From Phycisphaera mikurensis NBRC 102666 (GTDB lineage: Bacteria > Planctomycetota > Phycisphaerae > Phycisphaerales > Phycisphaeraceae): 32,000 nt of DNA. Location of the stretch: contig NC_017080.1 of the NCBI RefSeq assembly GCF_000284115.1, positions 720,001 through 752,000 of the forward strand. The letters run 5' to 3'. Positions 6,592-27,340 of the stretch are shown in pieces (within the stretch, counting starts at the first letter, position 1; the number at the start of each line of letters is the position of its first letter). Under the pieces are notes generated by a model that saw nothing but the letters and a program-made list of their open reading frames with translations, searched no databases and had not been told where the DNA came from. Both the position numbers and the translations under genes were made by a program.

Positions 6592-8139
6592 ATGCTCAGT
6601 GCTCGTGTTCGGTCGGGTGCGACGCGCCTCCTGCGGATCGGCGCCGCGGTCGCGGCGGTGGCCGCCGCTCCGGTCGCGGCGCAGCCGGTGAGCACGGTCG
6701 CCGGGCTGCGTGCGGCGGTGGCGGCGGCGTCCGACGGCGACGTCGTGGAGCTCGCCGCCGGCGACTACACGCTGGCGTCTTCGCTGCAGATCCGCTCGGG
6801 CGTGACGCTCCGCGGTGCGGGCACCGGGCGCACCACGCTGCGGGCGGCCGACGGCTGGCGGCCGGCCTTCGGCGGCAGCCTCGACGACGGAACCAACTTC
6901 CGGCGCCTGGATCCCTCCGCCTACCTCATCGACCTCGGCCGCGGCGTGAGCGATGGGGCGCGGATCGAGGGGATGACGCTCACGGGTGCGAACCTGCACG
7001 GGGCGGTGGCCGGCGTCGCCACCGACCGCTTGGCCTTTGAAGACCTGGAGGTCCGCGACTTCGGCTGGAGCGGGATCCGGCTGTTCATCTCCAACGACTC
7101 GGTCTTCCGCGGCAACGCCTTCCACAACGCCGGCGGCCGCGCGGGCGGGCCCGGGGTCAAGAGCGGTCCCACCGGCGGGGCGCTGAACCTCACGTACCTC
7201 AAGACCAGCGAGATCGCCAACAACCGCATCACCCGCGACCCCGGGAGCGACAACGTGTTCGGCGTGAAGGGGCGGGAGTTCCGCGACGTCGACGTCCACC
7301 ACAACACGATCGACACGAACTTCGCGATCGAGCTGCCCTTCGAGAACGACGAGCGGGTCACGATCCGCCACAACTTCCTCGACGGCACGGTCAGCCTGCC
7401 CAAGTTCGGCGGCGGCCGCGAGAACATCGGCCCCGAGGGCTCCGACAGCGCCTTCGAGATCCACCACAACGTGCTGACGCGGGCCTACTCCATCGAGGGC
7501 ACGCGCAACAACCTGGACGTGCACCACAACCTGTTCTCGATCGACCCCGACGACGACGGCGGCAACCTGATGTCCAGCTTCGGCGGCGGCTTCAAGGGCG
7601 TCGTCGGCGGGCCGGTGAGCTTCCGCGACAACCTCATCGACAACCCCGGCCGCGGCATTTTTTGGAGCGACGAGCCCCACGACAATTTCGAGTTCATCCG
7701 CAACCACGTGCGTCTCGACGAGAGCGAGCCCAACCCTTTCGGCACCGGCCTGTTCGGCTTCCGCGTGAGCCAGGACGACGGGGAGGGCGGCCGCTCCGAG
7801 ACAGACTTCTCCACCCTCACCCTCGCCGACAACCTCTTCGAGGTTCTTGGTGGGGAGGACGCCACCCGCGAGCTGTTCCGCAATCCCCAGAGCTTCGCGG
7901 CCCGCGTCGAGAACAACGATTTCGACGGCATCACCTTCACCGCGGCCCCCGAAAACTTCGACTTCGCCGCCTTCAACCCCGACACCGGCGCCGCCCGCGG
8001 CCCAAGCGGCCCGCTGGTCTTCCACGCCGGGGTCGGCGGCGAGTACGCCGTCGACGGCTTCTCCTTCACGCTCGTGCCCGAGCCGGCCGCGGCCGCGCTC
8101 GTGCTCGCCCCGCTGCTGGCGCTGCGGCGACGCCGCTGA
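6592..8139 (+). CDS. right-handed parallel beta-helix repeat protein with C-terminal PEP-CTERM sorting signal
   Basis: It has a signal-like N-terminus and a pectate-lyase-fold opening (GDVVELAAGDYTL...IRSGVTLRGAG). Repeated N/H-rich turns follow (HHNTID, IRHNF, HHNVL, HHNLF). The C-terminus is VPEPAAAALVLAPLLALRRRR. Confidence 0.85.
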   Translation: MLSARVRSGATRLLRIGAAVAAVAAAPVAAQPVSTVAGLRAAVAAASDGDVVELAAGDYTLASSLQIRSGVTLRGAGTGRTTLRAADGWRPAFGGSLDDGTNFRRLDPSAYLIDLGRGVSDGARIEGMTLTGANLHGAVAGVATDRLAFEDLEVRDFGWSGIRLFISNDSVFRGNAFHNAGGRAGGPGVKSGPTGGALNLTYLKTSEIANNRITRDPGSDNVFGVKGREFRDVDVHHNTIDTNFAIELPFENDERVTIRHNFLDGTVSLPKFGGGRENIGPEGSDSAFEIHHNVLTRAYSIEGTRNNLDVHHNLFSIDPDDDGGNLMSSFGGGFKGVVGGPVSFRDNLIDNPGRGIFWSDEPHDNFEFIRNHVRLDESEPNPFGTGLFGFRVSQDDGEGGRSETDFSTLTLADNLFEVLGGEDATRELFRNPQSFAARVENNDFDGITFTAAPENFDFAAFNPDTGAARGPSGPLVFHAGVGGEYAVDGFSFTLVPEPAAAALVLAPLLALRRRR

Positions 8140-8238
8140 TCCGCTCCGCTTCTCCAACTTGCACTCGCACCCACCTCCCGACCCGCCGGGCGCAGCCCGA
8201 GCGGCCGCGCGTCGAGACCACCGAGAAGCAAGCAAGAT

Positions 8239-8683
8239 CCGCGGACCGTCGACCTCCGGAGCCGCCTCGCTCGTCGGTCCGCGGCTGGGGCTTGGCGGCG
8301 TGCGGGCAGCGCTTCGCTCAATCGCGGAGGAGACAGAGGGAGAGGAGAAGGCAGAGCCGAGAGAGCGGGGGTTGCCCCGCCCTGTAGAAACCTCTGTTCT
8401 GCGTTCGCGGAACCGCACCTCGTGCGACGGAAATGTTGCCTTCGATGGCCGGATCGCCACGCGATCCGGGCCGGACTGCCGAGGAGCGTCATTCGAGCGG
8501 AAGGTCTGCGGCTTCAACGGGCCCGGTCTGCGTGGCAGACCGGCGATCGCGGGCATCGAATGACGCCTCCCCGACCGCGTGCGAAGGGGGCGTCACGATT
8601 TGGACCGTGCAGGTTTCTTGCGGGTTCGGACCGAAAGATCGGGGGTTGTCCCCGTTTCGGACCCGTTTCGGACCGCATGGGAT
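8239..8683. repeat. interspersed repeat family 1, copy A (~440 bp)
   Basis: Hand alignment to 9343-9785 shows the core 8275-8655 differs from 9384-9765 at only ~15 positions in ~375. It contains the hairpins GGATCGC-CAC-GCGATCC (8451-8467), CCGGTCTGC-GTG-GCAGACCGG and TGACGCCTCCCC...GGGGGCGTCA, plus a purine-rich tract GGAGGAGACAGAGGGAGAGGAGAAGGCAGAG. Confidence 0.9.
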
Positions 8684-8710
8684 CCGCTTCGGTTCGCGTA
8701 AGCTGAGGTC

Positions 8711-8935
8711 ATGCCGGCCGGCGTCCAGATCACCCCGAACGTGTGCCACGGCAAGCCCGTCATCGCAGGCACCCGCGTGTTGGTGTCCACGGTGCTCGGT
8801 GCGCTCGCGGGCGGGGATCCGGTGCAGGCGGTGGCGGATGACTACGGGTTGACGCCGGAGCAGGTCGCCGCGGCGCTCGCATTCGCCGCAGAGCTCGCGG
8901 ACGTGCCCACGCTGGCGTACGACGGGGCCGCGTGA
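8711..8935 (+). CDS. DUF433 domain-containing protein (antitoxin-like partner)
   Basis: The 74-aa product is MPAGVQITPNVCHGKPVIAGTRVLVSTVLGALAGGD...DYGLTPEQVAAALAFA, a DUF433 signature. GAGG lies just upstream. Its stop overlaps the next start (GTGA). Confidence 0.85.
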   Translation: MPAGVQITPNVCHGKPVIAGTRVLVSTVLGALAGGDPVQAVADDYGLTPEQVAAALAFAAELADVPTLAYDGAA

Positions 8936-9297
8936 ACTTCCTGCTGGATGAGAACTTTCCGAAGGCGGTGCGTCCGGCTCTGGAGCGGGCGGGTCATCGC
9001 GTGATTGACTTCCGTGAGGTCGGCATCCGCGGGTCCGACGATGAAGCGATCATGACGCTCGCGGCGCAGGAGGACGCCGTTGTGCTCACGACGGACCGCG
9101 ACTTCTTCCACACGCTCGGCCGGGAGCCCGGTCACCCAGGCCTCGTGGTGGTTGCGCTCAAGCAGCCGACGCGGGAAAAGATCCTCGCCCGCCTCACCTG
9201 GCTGATCGAGCGCGTCGGCGAAGACCACCTCCGCGGCCGTGCTATTCAGCTCCGCGACCGAGCGTGGCAGGCGTACCCGCCGCTGGACGAGGGATGA
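8932..9297 (+). CDS. DUF5615 family PIN-like (Mut7-C-like) protein (toxin-like partner)
   Basis: MNFLLDENFP...VIDFREVG.RGSDDEAIMTLAAQEDAVVLTTDRDF is the typical DUF5615 pattern. It is paired with DUF433 as in known two-gene modules. Confidence 0.85.
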   Translation: MNFLLDENFPKAVRPALERAGHRVIDFREVGIRGSDDEAIMTLAAQEDAVVLTTDRDFFHTLGREPGHPGLVVVALKQPTREKILARLTWLIERVGEDHLRGRAIQLRDRAWQAYPPLDEG

Positions 9298-9350
9298 ATG
9301 TTCCTGTCACCTTCGCGGACCGTCACCTTCGCGGACCACCTTCGCGGACC
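9296..9350 (+). repeat. GAATGTtCCTGtCACCTTCGCGG motif followed by 3 tandem CACCTTCGCGGAC units
   Basis: Read directly: gaatgttcctgtcaccttcgcggac cgtcaccttcgcggac caccttcgcggac. It starts at the stop codon of the DUF5615 gene. Confidence 0.9.
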
Positions 9351-9785
9351 AGACCGTCGCGGATTGCGGCCTCTCTGCCCGACGGTCCGCGGCTGGGGGT
9401 CGGTCGGCGTGCGGGCAGCGCTTCGCTCAATCGCGGAGGAGACAGAGGGAGAGGAGAAGGCAGAGCCGAGAGAGCGGGGGTTGTCCCGCCCTGTAGAAAC
9501 CTCTGTTCTGCGTTCGCGGAACCGCACCTCGTGCGCCGGAAATGTTGCCTCTGATGGCCGGATCGCCACGCGATCCGGGCCAGACTGCCGAGGAGCGTCG
9601 TTCGAGCGGAAGGTCTGCGGTTTCGATGGGCCCGGTCTGCGTGGCAGACCGGCGACCGCGGGCATCGAATGACGCCTCCCCGACCGCGTGCGAAGGGGGC
9701 GTCACGATCTGGACCGTGCAGGTTTCTCGCGGATTCGGACTGAGAGATCGGGGGTTGGCCGCGTTTTGAACTCGTTCTGAACTGA
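9343..9785. repeat. interspersed repeat family 1, copy B (~440 bp)
   Basis: This is a direct repeat of 8239-8683, in the same orientation and offset by ~1.1 kb. The same three hairpins are conserved, and GGATCGCCACGCGATCC lies at 9560-9576. Confidence 0.9.
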
Positions 9786-9862
9786 CACCTTCGCGGACCC
9801 TGCTTGAATGTACCTGACACCTTCGCCGACCTGACACCTTCGCCGACCGACACCTTCGCCGA
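9782..9862 (+). repeat. tandem (C)TGACACCTTCGCSGAC units including a GAATGTACCTGACACCTTCGCC motif
   Basis: There are four units, at 9782, 9813, 9830 and 9847. The full motif lies at 9806-9827. The array sits immediately downstream of the 151-aa gene's stop. Confidence 0.9.
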
Positions 9863-9896
9863 CCGGGAGTAGCCCGTGGCCAGGTGCCAAGAGATT

Positions 9897-10352
9897 CTAG
9901 GGACCTTCGAGATATGGCGTGCCCTCCGCCTCCCTATCCTCAAACGGGTTCGGAGAATTGACCATGATGCCTTGGGAGAACTGACAAGTCCTGCAAACGA
10001 CCGATGCCGTTACATGCGAACCGCTCTTCCGATAGTGGTTGCGGTGAATCTTGCCAAGGAACCGGCGCTCCTCATGCACCATCCAGCAGTTTGGGCAAAG
10101 CGGCCCCCCGGTCTGCGTCCAAGCAAGCCCGTTAATGACACGAACAGGGTCAGCGTCTCGGTTCGCGAGCTTAGTTTCTAATGCAGTCTTGTCTCGCTGA
10201 AGATCAATCATCGACTGCTGTGCCTCCAAGAGGGCGCGCTGATGAGCAATCGCTTCTTCTTGGAGCGGCAGAATCGCCGCATAGTCCTTCACCCGCACAA
10301 CGCTGCGGCAGAAGTCGAGTGCCATCTTGATGCCGGTAAGTGGATCGGTCAT
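9897..10352 (-). CDS. hypothetical protein, N-terminal coiled-coil plus C-terminal CxxC...CxxC zinc-ribbon-like domain (151 aa)
   Basis: The ORF is intact. It carries a heptad-like segment LQEEAIAHQRALLEAQQSMIDLQRDKTALETKLA and the cysteine pairs CPNC and CRTC. Its ATG overlaps the upstream ORF's stop (ATGA at 10349-10352). It lies in a GC trough. I recognise no family. Confidence 0.65.
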   Translation of the reverse strand: MTDPLTGIKMALDFCRSVVRVKDYAAILPLQEEAIAHQRALLEAQQSMIDLQRDKTALETKLANRDADPVRVINGLAWTQTGGPLCPNCWMVHEERRFLGKIHRNHYRKSGSHVTASVVCRTCQFSQGIMVNSPNPFEDREAEGTPYLEGP

Positions 10353-10522
10353 CGTGCCTTTCCGCCTCCTGCCTCCACCAGCGGTGCCACCAAGGCCTCG
10401 TACCGCTCGAAGAGGTGTTCGAAGCGGCGGCGTTCGTCGGGAAAGGGTTGGCGGCGGTAGCAGGCGTCGACGGCGCGGTCGAGGGTGGTGTGGGCTTTGG
10501 CAAGGGGGGCGGGGGTGGTCAT
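10349..10522 (-). CDS. 57-aa ORF resembling the extreme C-terminus of MmeI-family type IIL R-M enzymes (possible relic)
   Basis: This ORF is not in the ORF track (under 60 aa); I translated it by hand as MTTPAPLAKAHTTLDRAVDACYRRQPFPDERRRFEHLFERYEALVAPLVEAGGGKAR. The pattern AH..LD.AVD..Y.....F..D.ER...LF..Y..L matches the MmeI C-terminus as I recall it. ATGA overlaps occur at both ends. Confidence 0.45.
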   Translation of the reverse strand: MTTPAPLAKAHTTLDRAVDACYRRQPFPDERRRFEHLFERYEALVAPLVEAGGGKAR

Positions 10523-11202
10523 TCGTCCAGCGCCTCGACCTCGGCGTGCGGGTTCCGACGGTTGTAGAGCGTCACCATCTCGTCGATGTACTCCGACTCA
10601 GTGAACGCTTCGCCGGTGTCGGCGTTGTAAAGCTTCACCCACGCGCCCTCGCCGGACTCGTCGGCGGGGTTGAAGAGCATCATCGTGACGCTCTCGAACT
10701 TCTCGCCGGGATCGGTGTACTCCTCCCGGCCGGAGATCGTGCTCATCATCTTGAGAGCGCGGCGGAACGTCGACATCGGGCGGCCGGGCGTGACGTCGTC
10801 GTCGGCTGCGGCGGGAAAGGCGAAGAGGCAGCAGACGATGCTGTACGGGAATCGCATGTGCAGCGTGATCGCCTCGGTGCAGAGGTCGCCGAACCGGTTC
10901 TTCAGGTTCTTCGAGAACGGCGGGGCCGTGATGCTCTTCACGCTGACCGCGAGGAGCAGGCCGTGCCGCTCGTCGGAGAAGCTGACGTCCACCCGCTTCG
11001 GCCCCAGGCCGCCTTGGAAGGCCTTCTCGCCGGGCTGGCCGGGCAAGGGTCGGGTGCCTGTGAGGCCGCGGGCTCGGAGGGCAGACGCGAGGGCGGGTGC
11101 CACGGCGTGCGACAGTTTTTCGGCGTAACGCTTCTTCTCATGCGCGGGCGCGTCTTGACCCGGGAAGACTCCTGCGGCGATGACGGCGGAAACGAGGCTC
11201 AT
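10519..11202 (-). CDS. putative type II restriction endonuclease (PD-(D/E)XK-like), 227 aa
   Basis: It sits directly downstream of the methyltransferase and overlaps it (ATGA). A candidate catalytic core is KRVD72VSF...LLLAVS87VK89S, followed by NRFGDLCTEAITLHMRFPY. The specific family was not identified, and a XhoI/PaeR7I-like relationship is only a guess. Confidence 0.5.
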   Translation of the reverse strand: MSLVSAVIAAGVFPGQDAPAHEKKRYAEKLSHAVAPALASALRARGLTGTRPLPGQPGEKAFQGGLGPKRVDVSFSDERHGLLLAVSVKSITAPPFSKNLKNRFGDLCTEAITLHMRFPYSIVCCLFAFPAAADDDVTPGRPMSTFRRALKMMSTISGREEYTDPGEKFESVTMMLFNPADESGEGAWVKLYNADTGEAFTESEYIDEMVTLYNRRNPHAEVEALDE

Positions 11203-13049
11203 CGGGGGGGCGTCCCTGCTCGGGTGCGTCGCTCGCGGAGCGAGGCTGCGGCTTCGGCGAGCGTGGCAGCCTCAGGCGGCGTGAGCAGCTCCCGGTCGAC
11301 GACGGCGGTTGCGTCGCAGGCGCTTGCTCGGGCGGCCGCGTCAATGGAATCAAGGTCGACTCCTCTTAGGGCGGGGCCGGCGACGAGCACGCGCGCCGCT
11401 TCTCCGGGCTCGAGCTTCAGCATGCCCCCGCCGAGCCCATGGCCCTCAATCTCCACGGAAAGGCTTGTCAGCGAGGAACGCCACGCGGCGGCAAGCCGTT
11501 CCGCGGTCCAGCCGGATTCAGTGGCCGCCGGCTTCAAGCGGACGAGGTGCAAATTGTTGGGAGCCACCGCGGCCGCGGTGTTCGCCACGAGCCGCGGGGT
11601 GTCGCCGCTCATGTAGGTGAGGAAGGCGTCCGGCGGATCGCTCACCGGGACGGCGTGCCACGGGTGGCGGACGCGGCACTTGTACGCCTGATCGACCCCC
11701 AGCCGCTCACCTTCCTGCAGGTAGTCCATTGTGGGCCGGTCGAAGTTGGTGCCCGCGAGTCCACCCGGCGCGTGAAAGAGGAAGCCGGCGTCTCCCATTT
11801 CGCACGCGTTCTGCCAATCGCTTCGGGCAAACCGCAGGCCCCGCAGCGCCCGCCCCTTGCAGATCACCGGAAGGAGCCGGTCGGCGGGCAGACCGCGAGC
11901 GGCTGCTTCGGCGGGCGAGAGGTGGAAGTACCCGTTGTTCCCGCTGACGTAGCCGATGCCAGCGGAAGCGAGTGAGCGCAGGCGGTGCGTGCGGCGAGCC
12001 CCGCCATCGTCTCGGTCGGCTTCCCCCGCAAGCCGCTGATAGAGCTCACGGGCGTGCCCCGAGACGAGGAACGAGATCAGGCGGCTCTTCCCCGTGGCCA
12101 ACTCTTCCGCGGGGAGCGGCGTACTACCCACGCGTCGCGAGCAGGTGAGGCCGTCGAGGGCGTCGCTGTCGGGCAGATCGGCGTGGTAAACCTTCGCCGC
12201 ACCCGGCTGTTGGTTCCAGGACCGCCCGTCCGCGAGCAGCAGAACGCAGTCCTGGCTCAACTCCGGGAAGAGCCGTCGACGGAAGGTAATCACGTCGAGC
12301 CGATCAAACCCATCCACGAGGAAGCGGAGCACCGGCAACGCGTAGGCCGCGTGGAACAGCTCCATCGGGAGCACGAAGCCCAGCCGCCCGCCGGGCGCGA
12401 GGCAAGCCGCGCCGTGCACGGTGAAGGCGGCCCAAGAGCTGCAAAGACCATCGAGCCGAACCCCTGCCTCGCGAGCGCGAGCCCGGGCGGCTTCTCTCTC
12501 GCGACCTTTGAAGGACTGATAGCGGACGAAGGGCGGGTTGCCGACGACGGCGTCGAAGCCGCCGGCACGAAGCGATGGCTCGTCGAAGAAGCTGCCAAGG
12601 CGCAGGCGACTCCGATTCACGCCCGCGCCTGAGCGGGCGAGCACGGCCGCGTGCGCGTCCTCGTCGAGTTCGACGCCGTGTACGCAGGCGGATGCGTCGC
12701 CGCCGAGGTGCTCGATCCGCCGCGCCGCCGCGTCGAGGAAGACACCGCCGCCGAAGCTGGGATCAACCACTCGATCGTCCGCTCGGCGGATCGCCCAGCG
12801 ACAGAGAAACGCGGCGACGCCCTCGCCGGTGTAGAAAGCCCCGGAAGCCTTGTGGTTCGGCGAGAGCAGCGTGGCTGTCACGGCCGGAGGATACTCCGGT
12901 TCGGGAGTTGTCCGCTGGCACCGGCGTAAAGAGATCGTGGCGCTGGCGGCTTCTAGTCGTTCCAGAAGGACTGGCTCTCGGAACGCTCCCGCGCGGCGGC
13001 GCTCCGCTCGCGGGAGAAGGCGATGGCGCGCTGGCGGATCTCGTTCCAT
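11199..13049 (-). CDS. N6-adenine DNA methyltransferase, gamma class (TaqI/Eco57I-like) with C-terminal target-recognition region
   Basis: FYTGEGVAAF is FYTP-like. Motif I is VVDPSFGGGVFL and motif IV is VVGNPPFV, followed by GGRLGFVLP. The start is uncertain: ATG 13049 gives 616 aa and GTG 12881 gives 560 aa. With the 13049 start, the first ~33 codons are an out-of-frame reading of the MmeI-like stub. Confidence 0.85.
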   Translation of the reverse strand: MERDPPARHRLLPRAERRRAGAFREPVLLERLEAASATISLRRCQRTTPEPEYPPAVTATLLSPNHKASGAFYTGEGVAAFLCRWAIRRADDRVVDPSFGGGVFLDAAARRIEHLGGDASACVHGVELDEDAHAAVLARSGAGVNRSRLRLGSFFDEPSLRAGGFDAVVGNPPFVRYQSFKGREREAARARAREAGVRLDGLCSSWAAFTVHGAACLAPGGRLGFVLPMELFHAAYALPVLRFLVDGFDRLDVITFRRRLFPELSQDCVLLLADGRSWNQQPGAAKVYHADLPDSDALDGLTCSRRVGSTPLPAEELATGKSRLISFLVSGHARELYQRLAGEADRDDGGARRTHRLRSLASAGIGYVSGNNGYFHLSPAEAAARGLPADRLLPVICKGRALRGLRFARSDWQNACEMGDAGFLFHAPGGLAGTNFDRPTMDYLQEGERLGVDQAYKCRVRHPWHAVPVSDPPDAFLTYMSGDTPRLVANTAAAVAPNNLHLVRLKPAATESGWTAERLAAAWRSSLTSLSVEIEGHGLGGGMLKLEPGEAARVLVAGPALRGVDLDSIDAAARASACDATAVVDRELLTPPEAATLAEAAASLRERRTRAGTPPR

Positions 13050-13060
13050 GCGAGGGGCAT
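12953..13060 (-). pseudogene. 35-codon stub resembling the N-terminus of MmeI-family type IIL R-M enzymes
   Basis: Hand translation gives MPLAWNEIRQRAIAFSRERSAAARERSESQSFWND, then TAG. The family N-terminus as I recall it is ..SWNEIR.RA..F...W.......E.Q.F..DFF.VFG. The nuclease domain that should follow is absent. Confidence 0.5.
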
Positions 13061-13186
13061 GGGGTGACGCTAACGAGCGCGGATCGTGAAAGAAGTGGCC
13101 GCTTCGCCGGGCGAACGCCGTGGCATCCGAGGACCGAGGGGCCCTTGGTACAGAAGCCCTACGGTCTACGGTCGGCCGGGACGTGG

Positions 13187-13455
13187 CCCCACCGGCGCTC
13201 GGCTGCGCCGACGCCCGGATCGCACGCGATCCGGCTTTCGCGTCCGCTCCGCGGACCGTGGGCGGTCGGCGGCGTTCTCGCGCGGTCCGCGGCGTGAGCG
13301 GCAGCGGTTGCATTGCAACCGAACGCCGAAGCTGGATCGCCACGCGATCCAGACCGGGTCGATCCGAGGGTCCCGTCCGCCGCGGCTGGCATTCGTGGCG
13401 CTTCTGCGGGTCAACCCGGGAGGCTGCACACCCCACGCTCCGGGGCGCTCCTGGC
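13187..13455. repeat. interspersed repeat family 2, full copy
   Basis: The left part, 13187-13295, recurs at 13517-13628. The right part, 13249-13455, recurs at 17854-18065. It contains the hairpin CCGCGGACCG...CGGTCCGCGG (13249-13292) and GGATCGCCACGCGATCC (13334-13350). Confidence 0.85.
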
Positions 13456-13516
13456 GCCGCGGAGGTCGTGCGTGTAAACAGCGCGGGTCGCAGCGCGTCG
13501 CGGGTGGGAGCGCCGG

Positions 13517-13628
13517 CCCCGCCGCCGCTCGGCTGCGCCGACGCCCAAATTGCACGCGATCCGGGGTTCGCGTCCGCTTCGCGGACCGTGGGCGGTCGGC
13601 GGCGTTCCCGCGGTCCGTCCGCGGCGCA
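13517..13628. repeat. interspersed repeat family 2, partial copy (left module)
   Basis: This is a direct repeat of 13187-13295 (ccgctcggctgcgccgacgccc...gcacgcgatccgg..ttcgcgtccgct.cgcggaccgtgggcggtcggcggcgtt) at ~330-bp spacing. Confidence 0.85.
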
Positions 13629-13761
13629 GCGTGCTCGGCACGCCCCGCGTGCCGGATCCGGAATGTCGGGGGACGCGGGTTGGCGGGGGACGCGTCCCTT
13701 CGCCGCACCTTGTCCCTCCTTCACCCTTGACCCGCAGCTCCGGCACCGGCCGGCCTCGGCT

Positions 13762-14661
13762 TCACCGGCGTTTTTTCTCGCTCCAGGAGAGGGTCGCTTC
13801 CACCGGATGGTGGTCGGAGGGGAAGCGACCGTCGAAGGTCACGAGGTTGATCCTCGCGGACTCGACCTCGAAGTGCTCGCTGTGCAGAATCCAGTCGATC
13901 CGGGCGGTCCGCTGATTCTGCGGCTCGAACTTGTTGAAGGTGCCGGTCCAGCCGGGGTTCGGGTTGGCGGCCGCGAAGGTGTCGATCAGCACCGGCGGCT
14001 CGGAAGATCCCTCGGCGAGCAGCAGCCGGTAGGGCTCGCCCGTGAACGCCTTGGTGTTGAAGTCGCCGAGGACGAGCACGGGGCCCTCGCCGGCGATCCG
14101 CTTCATCCGCTCGCGCATCAGCCGGGCGCCGTGCACCTTGCTCTTGCCACCGATGTGGTCGAAGTGCGTGTTGAACACGTGCAGGGTGCGGCCGGTGGGC
14201 CGCTCCCGCAGCTGCACCCACTCCACACGCCGCGGCTGGTTCGAGTCCCAGTCGTCCCCGCCAAAGACGTCGGGCGTCTGGCTGATGTGAAACAGCCCGG
14301 CGTCGACGGACTCGAAACGGTCCGCACGCCAGAAGATTTGAGCCGACGCGGCCCGCTGCTGACGGCCCTCCAGGCCGTGCGTGCTCCCCGCGAGGGCATA
14401 GCCGGGCAGCCCCTCGAGGACGAAGGTCTCCTGGAAGGGCATCATCTCCTGGTAGCCGACGATGTCCGGGCCGAAGGCCCGGACCGTCTCGACCACGTGC
14501 TCCTTGCGGTGGTCCCAGTGATTCTCGCCGTCGTCGGCGGTGCCGAAGCGGATGTTGAAGGTCATGACCTTCAACGGCTGAAGCTCCGCGGCCGCGTCGG
14601 CAGTGAAGGCGCTGAAAAGCAAGACCAGGAGGCAGAGCGACGGGGCGGCGTGGCGGGTCAT
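13762..14661 (-). CDS. endonuclease/exonuclease/phosphatase (EEP) family protein, secreted
   Basis: The internal ATG at 14661 gives a 299-aa protein with a signal peptide (MTRHAAPSLCLLVLLFSAFTADA). Supporting motifs are VMTFNIRFG, GYQEM, NTHFDH, LGDFN and SDHHPV. Confidence 0.85.
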   Translation of the reverse strand: MTRHAAPSLCLLVLLFSAFTADAAAELQPLKVMTFNIRFGTADDGENHWDHRKEHVVETVRAFGPDIVGYQEMMPFQETFVLEGLPGYALAGSTHGLEGRQQRAASAQIFWRADRFESVDAGLFHISQTPDVFGGDDWDSNQPRRVEWVQLRERPTGRTLHVFNTHFDHIGGKSKVHGARLMRERMKRIAGEGPVLVLGDFNTKAFTGEPYRLLLAEGSSEPPVLIDTFAAANPNPGWTGTFNKFEPQNQRTARIDWILHSEHFEVESARINLVTFDGRFPSDHHPVEATLSWSEKKRR

Positions 14662-17853: not shown

Positions 17854-18065
17854 CCGCGGACCGTCGAGGATTTGCGGCGTTCTCGCGCGCGATCCGCGGC
17901 GCGGGCGCCAGCGATCGCATTGCAACTGAACGCCGAAGCCGGATCGCCACGCGATCCAGACCGGGTCGATTCGAGGGTTCCGTCCGCCGCGGCTGGGGTT
18001 CGTGGCGCTTCTGCGGGTCGACCCGGGAGGCTGCACACGTCACGCTCCGGGCCGCTCTTGGCGCG
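17854..18065. repeat. interspersed repeat family 2, copy D
   Basis: It aligns by eye with 13249-13455 in the same orientation, at roughly 85-90% identity. GGATCGCCACGCGATCC lies at 17941-17957. Confidence 0.85.
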
Positions 18066-26927: not shown

Positions 26928-27340
26928 CCGCGAAGGTGTCAGGTACATTCGATTCCGCTCCGGCCACCTTCGTCCTCAAGCCCCGCGTGGCCGGGGGGAA
27001 GCGCTGCGTGTCCGCCGACCACGTCCCTACCGCGGCGTGGTCCTCGCTCGGACGCTCGGGCTGCGCCCGACCGCTACACCGCCGGATCCGTGAAGGTGTC
27101 GATCCGCGAAGGTGTCAGGTACATTCGTTCGCGTTTTGCGACCGCGCTTTCTCCGACCCCCGCGTGGTCGAGCGGGGCGCTGTGCGTCCGCCGACCACGT
27201 CCCGGCCGCGGACCGTCGGGCGGGACGGCCCGGGAGGCTGACGGTCCGCGGATTCTGCCTTTCACGGTGTGGTACTTGCCCGGCCGCTACACCGCCGGAG
27301 GCGGTGAGCCACCGGTCTGGGCTGCGCCCGACGGAAGCGA
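26928..27340. repeat. two tandem ~176-bp mosaic repeat units, each opening with CCGCGAAGGTGTCAGGTACATTCG
   Basis: The identical 24-mer occurs at 26928-26951 and 27104-27127. Shared blocks are ccccgcgtgg, gtccgccgaccacgtccc, ccgctacaccgccgga and gggctgcgcccgac. The second unit contains the hairpin CCGCGGACCGTC...GACGGTCCGCGG (27206-27251). Confidence 0.85.

Follow-up and report, generated by a model that had tools for sequence, protein, structure and literature searches.

The two ends of an MmeI-family gene bracket a putative restriction-modification operon in Phycisphaera mikurensis

Introduction

It is known that one restriction-modification (R-M) system can replace another. Substitution of this kind between alleles of a single locus was reported by Furuta, Abe and Kobayashi (2010; PMC2853133): in Rhodopseudomonas a type IIG gene had taken the place of a type II modification gene, in another case a type I and type IV pair stood where there had been a type III system, and recognition domains were swapped within type IIG genes, with target recognition domains (TRDs) that are diverse among alleles. 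Here we analyze a window of 32,000 nucleotides (nt) from Phycisphaera mikurensis NBRC 102666 (NC_017080.1, positions 720,001 to 752,000; coordinates below are positions in this 32-kb window). On its minus strand, the genes for a DNA methyltransferase (MTase, M) and a presumed endonuclease partner (R) lie between two short open reading frames (ORFs), or stubs, that match the extreme ends of a type IIL gene of the MmeI family. We consider it probable that a complete type II R-M operon, unrelated to MmeI, took the place of the interior of an MmeI-family gene and left it a wreck, the stubs being kept as expression signals. The likeness to allelic substitution is that an unrelated R-M system replaces another; the difference is that the breakpoints lie inside the replaced gene, whose first and last codons bracket the newcomer. 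PMC2853133 contains no case of a different cassette between both ends of the replaced gene, and recurrence in one gene family, with at least eight cassettes, is a feature of the MmeI case in Phycisphaerae.

Other kinds of turnover invite comparison. Defense islands and hotspots hold variable defense cargo between conserved core genes. The loci described here resemble them in carrying variable cargo (type II and type IV R-M enzymes, toxin-antitoxin (TA) modules, a nucleoside triphosphatase (NTPase)) at a recurring position, and a TA-like pair adjoins the window locus; here, however, the brackets are the two ends of one defense gene rather than core or mobile-element genes, and no integrase or transposase lies nearby. 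In type I and type IIG enzymes, recognition domains are exchanged by “domain movement”. There too an internal segment is exchanged while the outer parts stay, but the segment is a homologous domain and the gene remains functional, whereas here the interior has given way to separate genes and the host gene is destroyed. Finally, short C-terminal ORFs with the same annotation as the 57-aa ORF of the window are found on plasmids (Acinetobacter baumannii pD46-3, Staphylococcus pasteuri, Serratia entomophila), but these are one-sided, with no matching N-terminal stub and no defense cassette bracketed by both ends.

R-M replacement at a locus, TRD swapping in type IIG genes, and defense islands and hotspots (see also PMC8791490 and PMC12629846) are already known. 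What we did not find described is a single-chain R-M gene whose opening and closing codons enclose unrelated defense cassettes, repeatedly in one family; our literature search for defense cassettes bracketed by MmeI termini was incomplete, and its negative outcome is weak evidence. The original prediction for this locus, made by a model from the sequence alone, was aware of no description of either replacement of an MmeI interior or a split architecture. This needs qualifying: substitution of R-M systems at the level of the locus is described (PMC2853133), and it is the intragenic form that we did not find in the literature.

Why does this matter? Taken alone, the feature in the window would be a well-explained pseudogene around a live R-M operon, and the recurrent pattern is the main point of interest. 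Defense turnover usually involves cargo between core genes or in mobile elements; here the brackets are the ends of a single defense gene. If this is more than neutral decay, it offers a testable model for integrase-free gain of expression and spread, either through capture of a promoter and leader or through homology arms. More practically, the 57-aa ORF and the plasmid fragments are annotated as MmeI enzyme and inflate R-M counts, and the family of the 227-aa R protein (more than 600 proteins), which is without a Pfam, NCBIfam or PADLOC model, is a candidate new restriction-enzyme family.

The stubs are MmeI-family termini

Read along the minus strand, the series begins with a remnant of 35 codons (12953-13060) whose peptide, MPLAWNEIRQRAIAFSRERSAAARERSESQSFWND, is followed by TAG (13060-12953); after R comes a 57-codon ORF (10349-10522). 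In MmeI itself, the regions homologous to these stubs are residues 1-35 and about 859-907, respectively. The 57-aa product matches Pfam MmeI_C over positions 36-82 of the 83-position profile (E 5.5e-13; its score of 49.4 bits exceeds the curated cut-off of 27) and the PADLOC type IIG model PDLC03598 at positions 865-909 of 912, and its name at NCBI is “type IIL restriction-modification enzyme MmeI”. A Pfam search of the 35-aa stub gave no match, the stub being too short, as MmeI_N starts only at residue 11 of intact proteins. Set against residues 1-35 of an intact Phycisphaerae homolog, L009 (L001-L042 denote loci or contigs compared with the window locus), the stub is 77% identical (BLASTP E 7e-17); L009 possesses all five MmeI Pfam domains, and its residues 1-921 align with residues 1-907 of crystallized MmeI (PDB 5HR4) at E 5.7e-291. 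A subfamily hidden Markov model (HMM) was built from 14 intact homologs and run unfiltered over each of the 601 segments in the six-frame translation of the window. It matches the C stub at E 1.1e-22 (profile 863-913) and the N stub at E 3e-13 (profile 1-35) and reveals no further MmeI fragment in the 32 kb, its next match having E ~9; tblastn with intact proteins agrees.

Judged by these alignments, both stubs are genuine MmeI-family termini, comprising the first 35 codons and the last ~50-55 codons of such a gene. This is what the original prediction had stated, proposing profile searches of both peptides as a check, and both now have significant matches, through Pfam MmeI_C, the subfamily HMM, BLASTP and the 5HR4 alignment. 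The coordinates, motifs and three ATGA stop-start overlaps (11199-11202, 10519-10522, 10349-10352) that it listed all agree on re-check, as does its statement that the interior domains are missing between the ends, since the filter-free six-frame HMM search finds only the two termini.

Some 830 interior positions of an MmeI-type gene are absent from the window, encompassing the nuclease, spacer, MTase and TRD domains. Intact Phycisphaerae relatives align end to end with MmeI (PDB 5HR4; Pfam MmeI_N, MmeI_hel, MmeI_Mtase, MmeI_TRD and MmeI_C), whereas the window keeps only the two ends, as the remnant of a gene. The architecture of one polypeptide of ~920 aa does not hold here, the stubs being separate ORFs 2.4 kb apart. 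The N remnant stops at residue 35, or at most at about residue 50 in degenerate form, and the region of the nuclease catalytic residues, around residues 70-82 of MmeI, is gone.

The cassette between them is an autonomous M+R module

The cassette consists of a 5' leader (12882-12915), which is also kept 5' of the MTase start in the stub-less copies L033 and L036, a gamma-class N6-adenine DNA methyltransferase of 560 aa with a GTG start (11199-12881), and its 227-aa partner (10519-11202), whose start overlaps the MTase stop in ATGA; a 71-nt gap separates the N-stub ORF from the MTase start. Such 4-nt ATGA overlaps join each neighbor among the ORFs 11199-13724, 10519-11202, 10349-10522 and 9897-10352. 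The first of these, of 841 aa, is most likely an upstream extension of the MTase, with the true start at GTG 12881; a gene caller run on L001, an independent assembly of the same sequence, gave the identical four products, including the 560-aa MTase.

The MTase carries its motifs in gamma order, GAFYTGEG (motif X), DPSFGGGVFL (motif I, 12764-12735) and GNPPFV (motif IV, 12542-12525), has the Pfam domains N6_Mtase, Eco57I and M_Eco57I_C (a C-terminal recognition domain), and is a full-length match to the stand-alone PADLOC model MTase_II (E 5.6e-93). Between the window and its closest counterpart, L031, its dN/dS is 0.19 at a dS of 0.34. Purifying selection has acted on the enzyme since the split from the L031 organism, and the cassette insertion is older than that split.

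The partner is harder to place. Our search gave 610 homologs of it, with identities typically ~60% for those listed, and no Pfam domain was seen among them; the 227-aa protein itself has no Pfam, NCBIfam or PADLOC match, a sequence profile of it found no match in the PDB, and an NCBIfam search of the M, R, 57-aa and 151-aa proteins gave no matches. Within the family, D72, D77, K89, D106 and E110 are among the invariant residues, and S87 is nearly so. In our reading, D72, S87, K89 and E110 would fit a D...SxK...E variant of the PD-(D/E)XK site, and the AlphaFold model (predicted local distance difference test score, pLDDT, 90.5) has an alpha/beta core. The earlier assignment of the pair to a TaqI/Eco57I-like gamma N6A MTase and a “PD-(D/E)XK-like” protein divides: Pfam, PADLOC and the motifs uphold its first half, and the label on the 227-aa protein finds no significant match in sequence or in structure (see below). 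The partner is presumed to be a restriction endonuclease. A homolog of 215-232 aa lies directly 3' of the MTase in L001, L032, L033, L034/35 and L036, with M and R overlapping by 4 nt, abutting, or separated by a 30-nt gap (L032), depending on the context.

In four other contexts (L032, L033, L034/35 and L036) the M+R pair occurs without MmeI stubs. Neither did tblastn with intact MmeI proteins find an MmeI fragment in L032-L035, nor is there a stub in the 200 nt upstream and 56 nt downstream that are available for L036. Therefore, the stubs do not belong to that system: M+R is, on this comparative evidence, an autonomous module of which the stubs are not part. The possibility raised at the outset, that such terminal peptides are ordinary components of TaqI/Eco57I-like two-gene systems, fails on the same evidence. 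As for the setting of one of these pairs, the stub-less M+R of L032 (1-2830) adjoins two GmrSD_N genes, and within 6 kb there are also a HicA/HicB pair and a D12-class methylase, which is the context of an ordinary defense island; the L032 organism has the window's repeat family.

The junctions

DNA homology of the cassette to the stub-less L033 extends over 12915-10519 (blastn), beginning 34 nt 5' of the MTase start and ending with the final base of the R stop, and MmeI_C homology to many loci begins at 10521. R homologs terminate at about the same residue. By these alignments the right junction coincides, to within a few nt, with the R stop codon. It is at this junction that the C stub acquires its ATG, the A coming from the last R codon and the TG(A) doubling as the R stop. 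On the left side, MmeI homology covers 13075-12955 and the cassette edge is at 12915; the 37 nt between them (12952-12916) resemble decayed MmeI sequence. Upstream, blastn homology on the N-stub side begins at 13075 for L031 and at 13073 for L002, and ~20 nt ahead of the stub ATG (13061-13080) are common, in alignments, to L031 and L002 but not to intact genes of other lineages; this segment may represent the 5' untranslated region and ribosome-binding site of the old MmeI gene, now heading the operon.

The hallmarks of a site-specific mobile cassette (an integrase or transposase, attC or terminal repeats, a target-site duplication) are absent. No repeat pair surrounds 10519-12915, the R stop and the C stub lie too close together for an attC-like site to fit between them, and no integrase or transposase is found near the cassette, the neighbors being an EEP-family protein, a pseudopilin, a DUF433/PIN pair and a beta-helix protein. 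A terminator scan gave a single terminator-like match, inside the MTase gene and below the shuffle expectation, and an Rfam search of 8000-14000 at E <= 0.1 found nothing.

Recurrence across Phycisphaerae

A search with the concatenated stubs led to other short MmeI_N- and MmeI_C-like ORFs, and scans with a C-stub alignment of one genome per species and of Joint Genome Institute (JGI) metagenomes returned 25 loci. By title, all 15 genome-scan loci are Planctomycetota or Phycisphaerae metagenome-assembled genomes, apart from one labelled only “bacterium”. A scan of viral contigs with the same alignment found no relatives and thus no sign of phage-borne subfamily members. Complete intact genes, of 916-955 aa, are present at 14 of the 25 loci (L006, L008, L009, L011-L016, L018, L023, L027-L029), ten from the genome scan and four from the metagenome scan; five are cut by contig ends (L007, L021, L022, L024, L026), and six are hollowed or reduced (L010, L017, L019, L020, L025, L030). 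Among the judgeable species-level loci of the genome scan, 4 of 14 are hollowed or reduced.

The contents of the hollowed genes differ. An MmeI_N stub and an MmeI_C stub enclose a C5 methylase and an Eco29kI endonuclease in L005; in L003/L004 a C5 methylase and XamI are followed by an MmeI_C stub, the longer C remnant of L003 containing a frameshift and the available 200 nt 5' of its cassette holding no N remnant; and in L002 an N stub precedes an Mrr-type enzyme. L010 keeps residues 1-219/260 and the C part from residue 819; the space in between is filled by XhoI and an N6_N4 methylase, which are encoded on the opposite strand. L017 keeps residues 2-124 and the C part from 883, around a frameshifted XamI and an Eco57I-like methylase, and L025, whose contig starts at residue 156, keeps the N part up to 201 and the C part from 792 around a GmrSD enzyme. 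The remaining loci are reduced to C remnants, one of 39 aa after a RES-Xre pair (L030) and bare ones adjoining a KAP NTPase (L019, L020). The extreme start and the extreme end both survive in the window, L005, L010 and L017, and the cassette of L025 is flanked by MmeI sequence on either side. In each of the four co-oriented cases, 0-20 nt separate the last cassette stop from the point where the MmeI remnant resumes, and a leader of 30-130 nt is kept.

The N breakpoints fall at residues 35, 36-45, 60, 124, 201 and 219-260 and the C breakpoints at residues 792, 809, 819, 864, 867 and 883. Since they vary between cases, these are independent events and not one inherited oddity, and across the loci compared the MmeI subfamily of Phycisphaerae has been hollowed out on separate occasions and has received at least eight different defense cassettes. 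Conserved neighbors across loci were found only for L019 and L020, whose downstream genes are common to L021, which has an intact gene; the flanks of the other loci differ.

C-terminal MmeI fragments also occur in quite different settings: adjoining ISAba1/blaOXA-23 on A. baumannii pD46-3 (L040, 5968-6360), adjoining an ars operon in S. pasteuri (L042, 5971-6375), and near GIY-YIG/SIR2 genes in S. entomophila (L041, 5590-6519).

Decay and constraint of the stubs

L031 has the identical cassette and junction, at 87.6% DNA identity to the window. There the stub frame runs on without a stop as far as a TGA overlapping the MTase GTG; the TAG of the window falls 24 codons earlier, where L031 has a sense codon, and the indels come after codon 35. 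Within the N stub of the window, the conserved Trp of FSREW (W19) has changed to Arg. In the segment that follows (12916-12952), which by its similarity to L002 would be a degenerate continuation covering about codons 36-50 of the old gene, the FFxVFG codons are deleted and the frame is shifted. The L002 counterpart resembles intact MmeI genes (0/1000 shuffles) and lacks 12 nt at the FFxV codons; aligned to L002, the versions in the window and L031 show extra 5-nt and 4-nt gaps, and the resemblance of the window segment to L002 (4/1000 shuffles) is a weaker step than that of L002 to intact genes. A breakpoint shared by the window and L002 was considered as a site-specific signal and rejected, L002 being still MmeI-derived after FWND, with its 12-nt deletion, and the window and L031 looking further deleted.

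In the C stub the conserved Arg of DRCYRR is gone. Comparison of this stub with its nearest intact relative gives 23 nonsynonymous and 8 synonymous differences (P 1.6e-4 when set against 0.22, the ratio for the family). Pooled C remnants of all replaced loci have a pN/pS of 0.18, against 0.21 for intact genes, in a comparison of low power (pS ~0.47 to the nearest intact gene); among them, only the window's own stub deviates in nonsynonymous excess. The C-remnant frame, spanning the last ~40-55 codons, is open to the native stop in every locus examined. Because of the premature TAG, the indels, the loss of the Trp and the nonsynonymous excess in the C stub, the stubs look like the remains of a pseudogene, mostly not alive.

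The N stub also shows a slower component. Between the window and L031 there are 4 mismatches in its outer 72 nt and 12 in its central 33 nt (Fisher P 1e-4, for a post hoc partition), and the outer parts diverge far less than neighboring MTase synonymous sites (P <= 9e-5). We read the slow ends, together with the shared ~20 nt upstream, as constraint on the translation start and promoter-proximal region that heads the operon; the alternative reading is recombination with other alleles.

How could the ends have come to bracket the cassette?

The account we favor, replacement of the gene interior with retention of the ends as expression signals, starts from illegitimate or homology-assisted recombination within a defense gene. 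Type IIL enzymes combine R and M activities in one chain; because of this, a single-chain MmeI gene would be cheap to lose, with no post-segregational killing. We posit that the five ORFs (stub, M, R, stub and 151-aa ORF) are read as a single transcript from the old MmeI 5' end, that M methylates adenine in a specific site, and that the 227-aa partner cuts unmethylated copies. The stubs, in our view, would have no enzymatic role and would persist for their expression signals: the 5' stub and the upstream 20 nt as a promoter-proximal region and leader ORF feeding the M start, the 3' stub as ribosome-binding context for the 151-aa gene. Later spread could possibly have taken place through the remnants. 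The leader idea is supported by the L031 stub ORF, which reaches a TGA over the GTG of M, and retention of the ends for expression signals by the linkage to the 151-aa ORF. The core of this account, replacement of the interior of a resident gene by a foreign two-gene R-M cassette, was one of two readings in the original prediction and has held up well: the termini are true, M+R occurs stub-free elsewhere, and the homology to L033 ends where MmeI_C begins.

Several results weigh against it. No syntenic relative with an intact allele at the window's exact locus was found, and the “resident gene” is deduced from the stubs. The early TAG of the window weakens strict translational coupling to M, and the promoter scan found no sigma-70 consensus. 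Retention of expression signals leaves unexplained why L010, whose cassette is in reverse orientation, also keeps both termini and why the 3' junctions lie so close to the last stop (0-20 nt) in 4/4 co-oriented cases. As to a nuclease fold in R, a Foldseek comparison of its model with the PDB gave nothing at E <= 0.001, with HindIII at E 0.2-0.3.

Plain wear and tear is on the unlikely side. A cassette would have landed in a dispensable defense gene, random deletions would have trimmed what was left, the ends would have no role, and the recurrence would reflect defense islands acting as sinks for DNA. The variable breakpoints, the indels, frameshift and stop after codon 35 of the N remnant, the relaxed constraint on the C stub and the frameshifted longer C remnant of L003 all fit such a history, as do the TA pair and dispersed repeats that adjoin the window locus and the bare C-terminal MmeI fragments, generated by insertion sequence (IS) elements or rearrangements, that are common on plasmids of other phyla. 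Random trimming, however, gives no reason to expect the extreme start to survive together with the extreme end in the window, L005, L010 and L017, the first 35 codons and the upstream 20 nt to evolve more slowly than synonymous sites, or the C remnant to be open to its native stop at every locus examined.

Alternatively, the termini could serve as recombination handles, stub-flanked cassettes being imported into MmeI-like genes by double crossover and new illegitimate junctions being rare; we think this rather unlikely. One argument for it comes from a single metagenome, in which an intact gene (L024) and a GmrSD-replaced one (L025) start at the same nucleotide (positions 1-110 of each contig compared). 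They are identical over their first 70 nt, ~80% identical over the 33 nt that then lead up to the cassette, and 83% identical in the C part (L025 2307-2727). This mosaic would suggest recombination within the N-terminal remnant, or else a branch of the assembly graph between two strains. At 80% identity, the chance of a 70-nt identical run is 1.6e-7, but the identity lies at the contig starts and partly reflects such branching. The N remnants of window/L031 and L002 form one sublineage, with 84-90% nt identity, the common upstream 20 nt, nested deletions, and different cassettes and flanks; the nearest DNA relatives of the window N stub are likewise stubs (L002, 89%; L005, 83%), intact genes reaching at most 79%. 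This likeness may instead reflect host relatedness, as P. mikurensis has repeat families in common with the organisms of L002 and L032. Homology between the window and L031 ends ~20 nt upstream of the stub ATG, which counts in favor of handles, but with only 100 nt of upstream flank in L031 and repeat-rich intergenic DNA in the window, the lost alignment is weak evidence. The N-stub pattern of conserved ends and a variable center, for its part, mimics that of the intact family. Two observations bear on the handles themselves. Breakpoints are specific to each cassette type, so each junction arose separately. And the notion that the termini are the most conserved DNA of the gene was rejected by the identity profile, in which their mean pairwise identity is 0.65-0.72 against 0.76-0.83 for the MTase motifs; they are therefore not obvious preferred crossover sites. 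The original prediction, which cast the conserved termini as handles, thus goes further than the data: differing breakpoints and moderate conservation leave the proposal not shown, with indirect hints in its favor from L024/L025 and the shared N-remnant sublineage.

In its most general form, which we regard as quite unlikely, Phycisphaerae MmeI genes would be reusable defense slots, their ends kept both as expression and as homology arms, with compact cassettes swapped by recombination and spread to any genome that has an MmeI-like gene. Such a slot would keep the first ~35-60 codons, together with the promoter-proximal region, and the last ~40-120 codons, and would accept cassettes with a 30-130 nt leader and essentially no 3' tail, so that modules of several kinds (type II, type IV, TA and others) would succeed one another within what is left of a dead gene.

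Very improbable, finally, is a functional split architecture, the second of the originally predicted readings, in which the 35-aa and 57-aa peptides are made and act with M and R, for example as adaptor helices or regulators: the ORFs are chained by ATGA overlaps, the last ~40-55 codons are open in all remnants and the N-stub peptide is largely conserved among the window, L031 and L002, but M+R modules without stubs are the rule, stubs accompany unrelated cassettes, the ATG of the C stub is a by-product of the junction, and the premature TAG with its indels, the lost Trp and DRCYRR Arg, and the near-neutral change in the C stub (23 against 8) speak against it.

The 151-aa ORF and neighboring repeats

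The last ORF of the series (9897-10352, minus strand), whose ATG overlaps the C-stub stop, encodes a near-orphan protein of 151 aa with a coiled coil and a CxxC...CxxC motif. Its GC content is 0.57-0.59, against ~0.69 around it, and word-indexed and exhaustive HMMER searches of two very large protein libraries returned only 2-4 homologs, with no function. The one clear homolog, encoded in L037 (1-606)/L038 (1-604), is 55% identical and starts 8 nt after a degenerate MmeI_C-like end (…LDRAVDHYYRPAPFADGAGRFEHLF…). Because this homolog likewise sits after an MmeI_C-like end, the 151-aa ORF is probably the original downstream neighbor of the MmeI gene.

Just 3' of the 151-aa ORF, at 9782-9860, stand four tandem copies of the motif (C/G)GCGAAGGTGTCAG, which recurs at 9304, 26929 and 27105. 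With 8 matches in the window against 0.4 expected, and further occurrences in L002 (10499-10685), it looks like a dispersed intergenic repeat of the repetitive extragenic palindrome (REP) kind. Farther along, a 300-nt direct repeat, 95% identical between its copies (8287-8586 and 9396-9695), encloses a segment of ~810 nt (8587-9395) that holds the TA-like pair, DUF433 and DUF5615/PIN_10 (8711-8935 and 8932-9297). The whole (8287-9695) resembles an “insertion with long target duplication”; parts of the repeat also occur, inverted, at 27151-27258, and it may therefore be a member of a dispersed family.

On the other side of the locus, the 700 nt 5' of the N stub consist largely of dispersed repeats, with no Rfam match. 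A 98-nt unit occurs there twice (13185-13282 and 13515-13612, 91% identity), and a 182-nt unit (13276-13457) recurs 4.6 kb away at 17883-18064 with 90% identity. Matches of 46 nt to these upstream repeats are present in L032.

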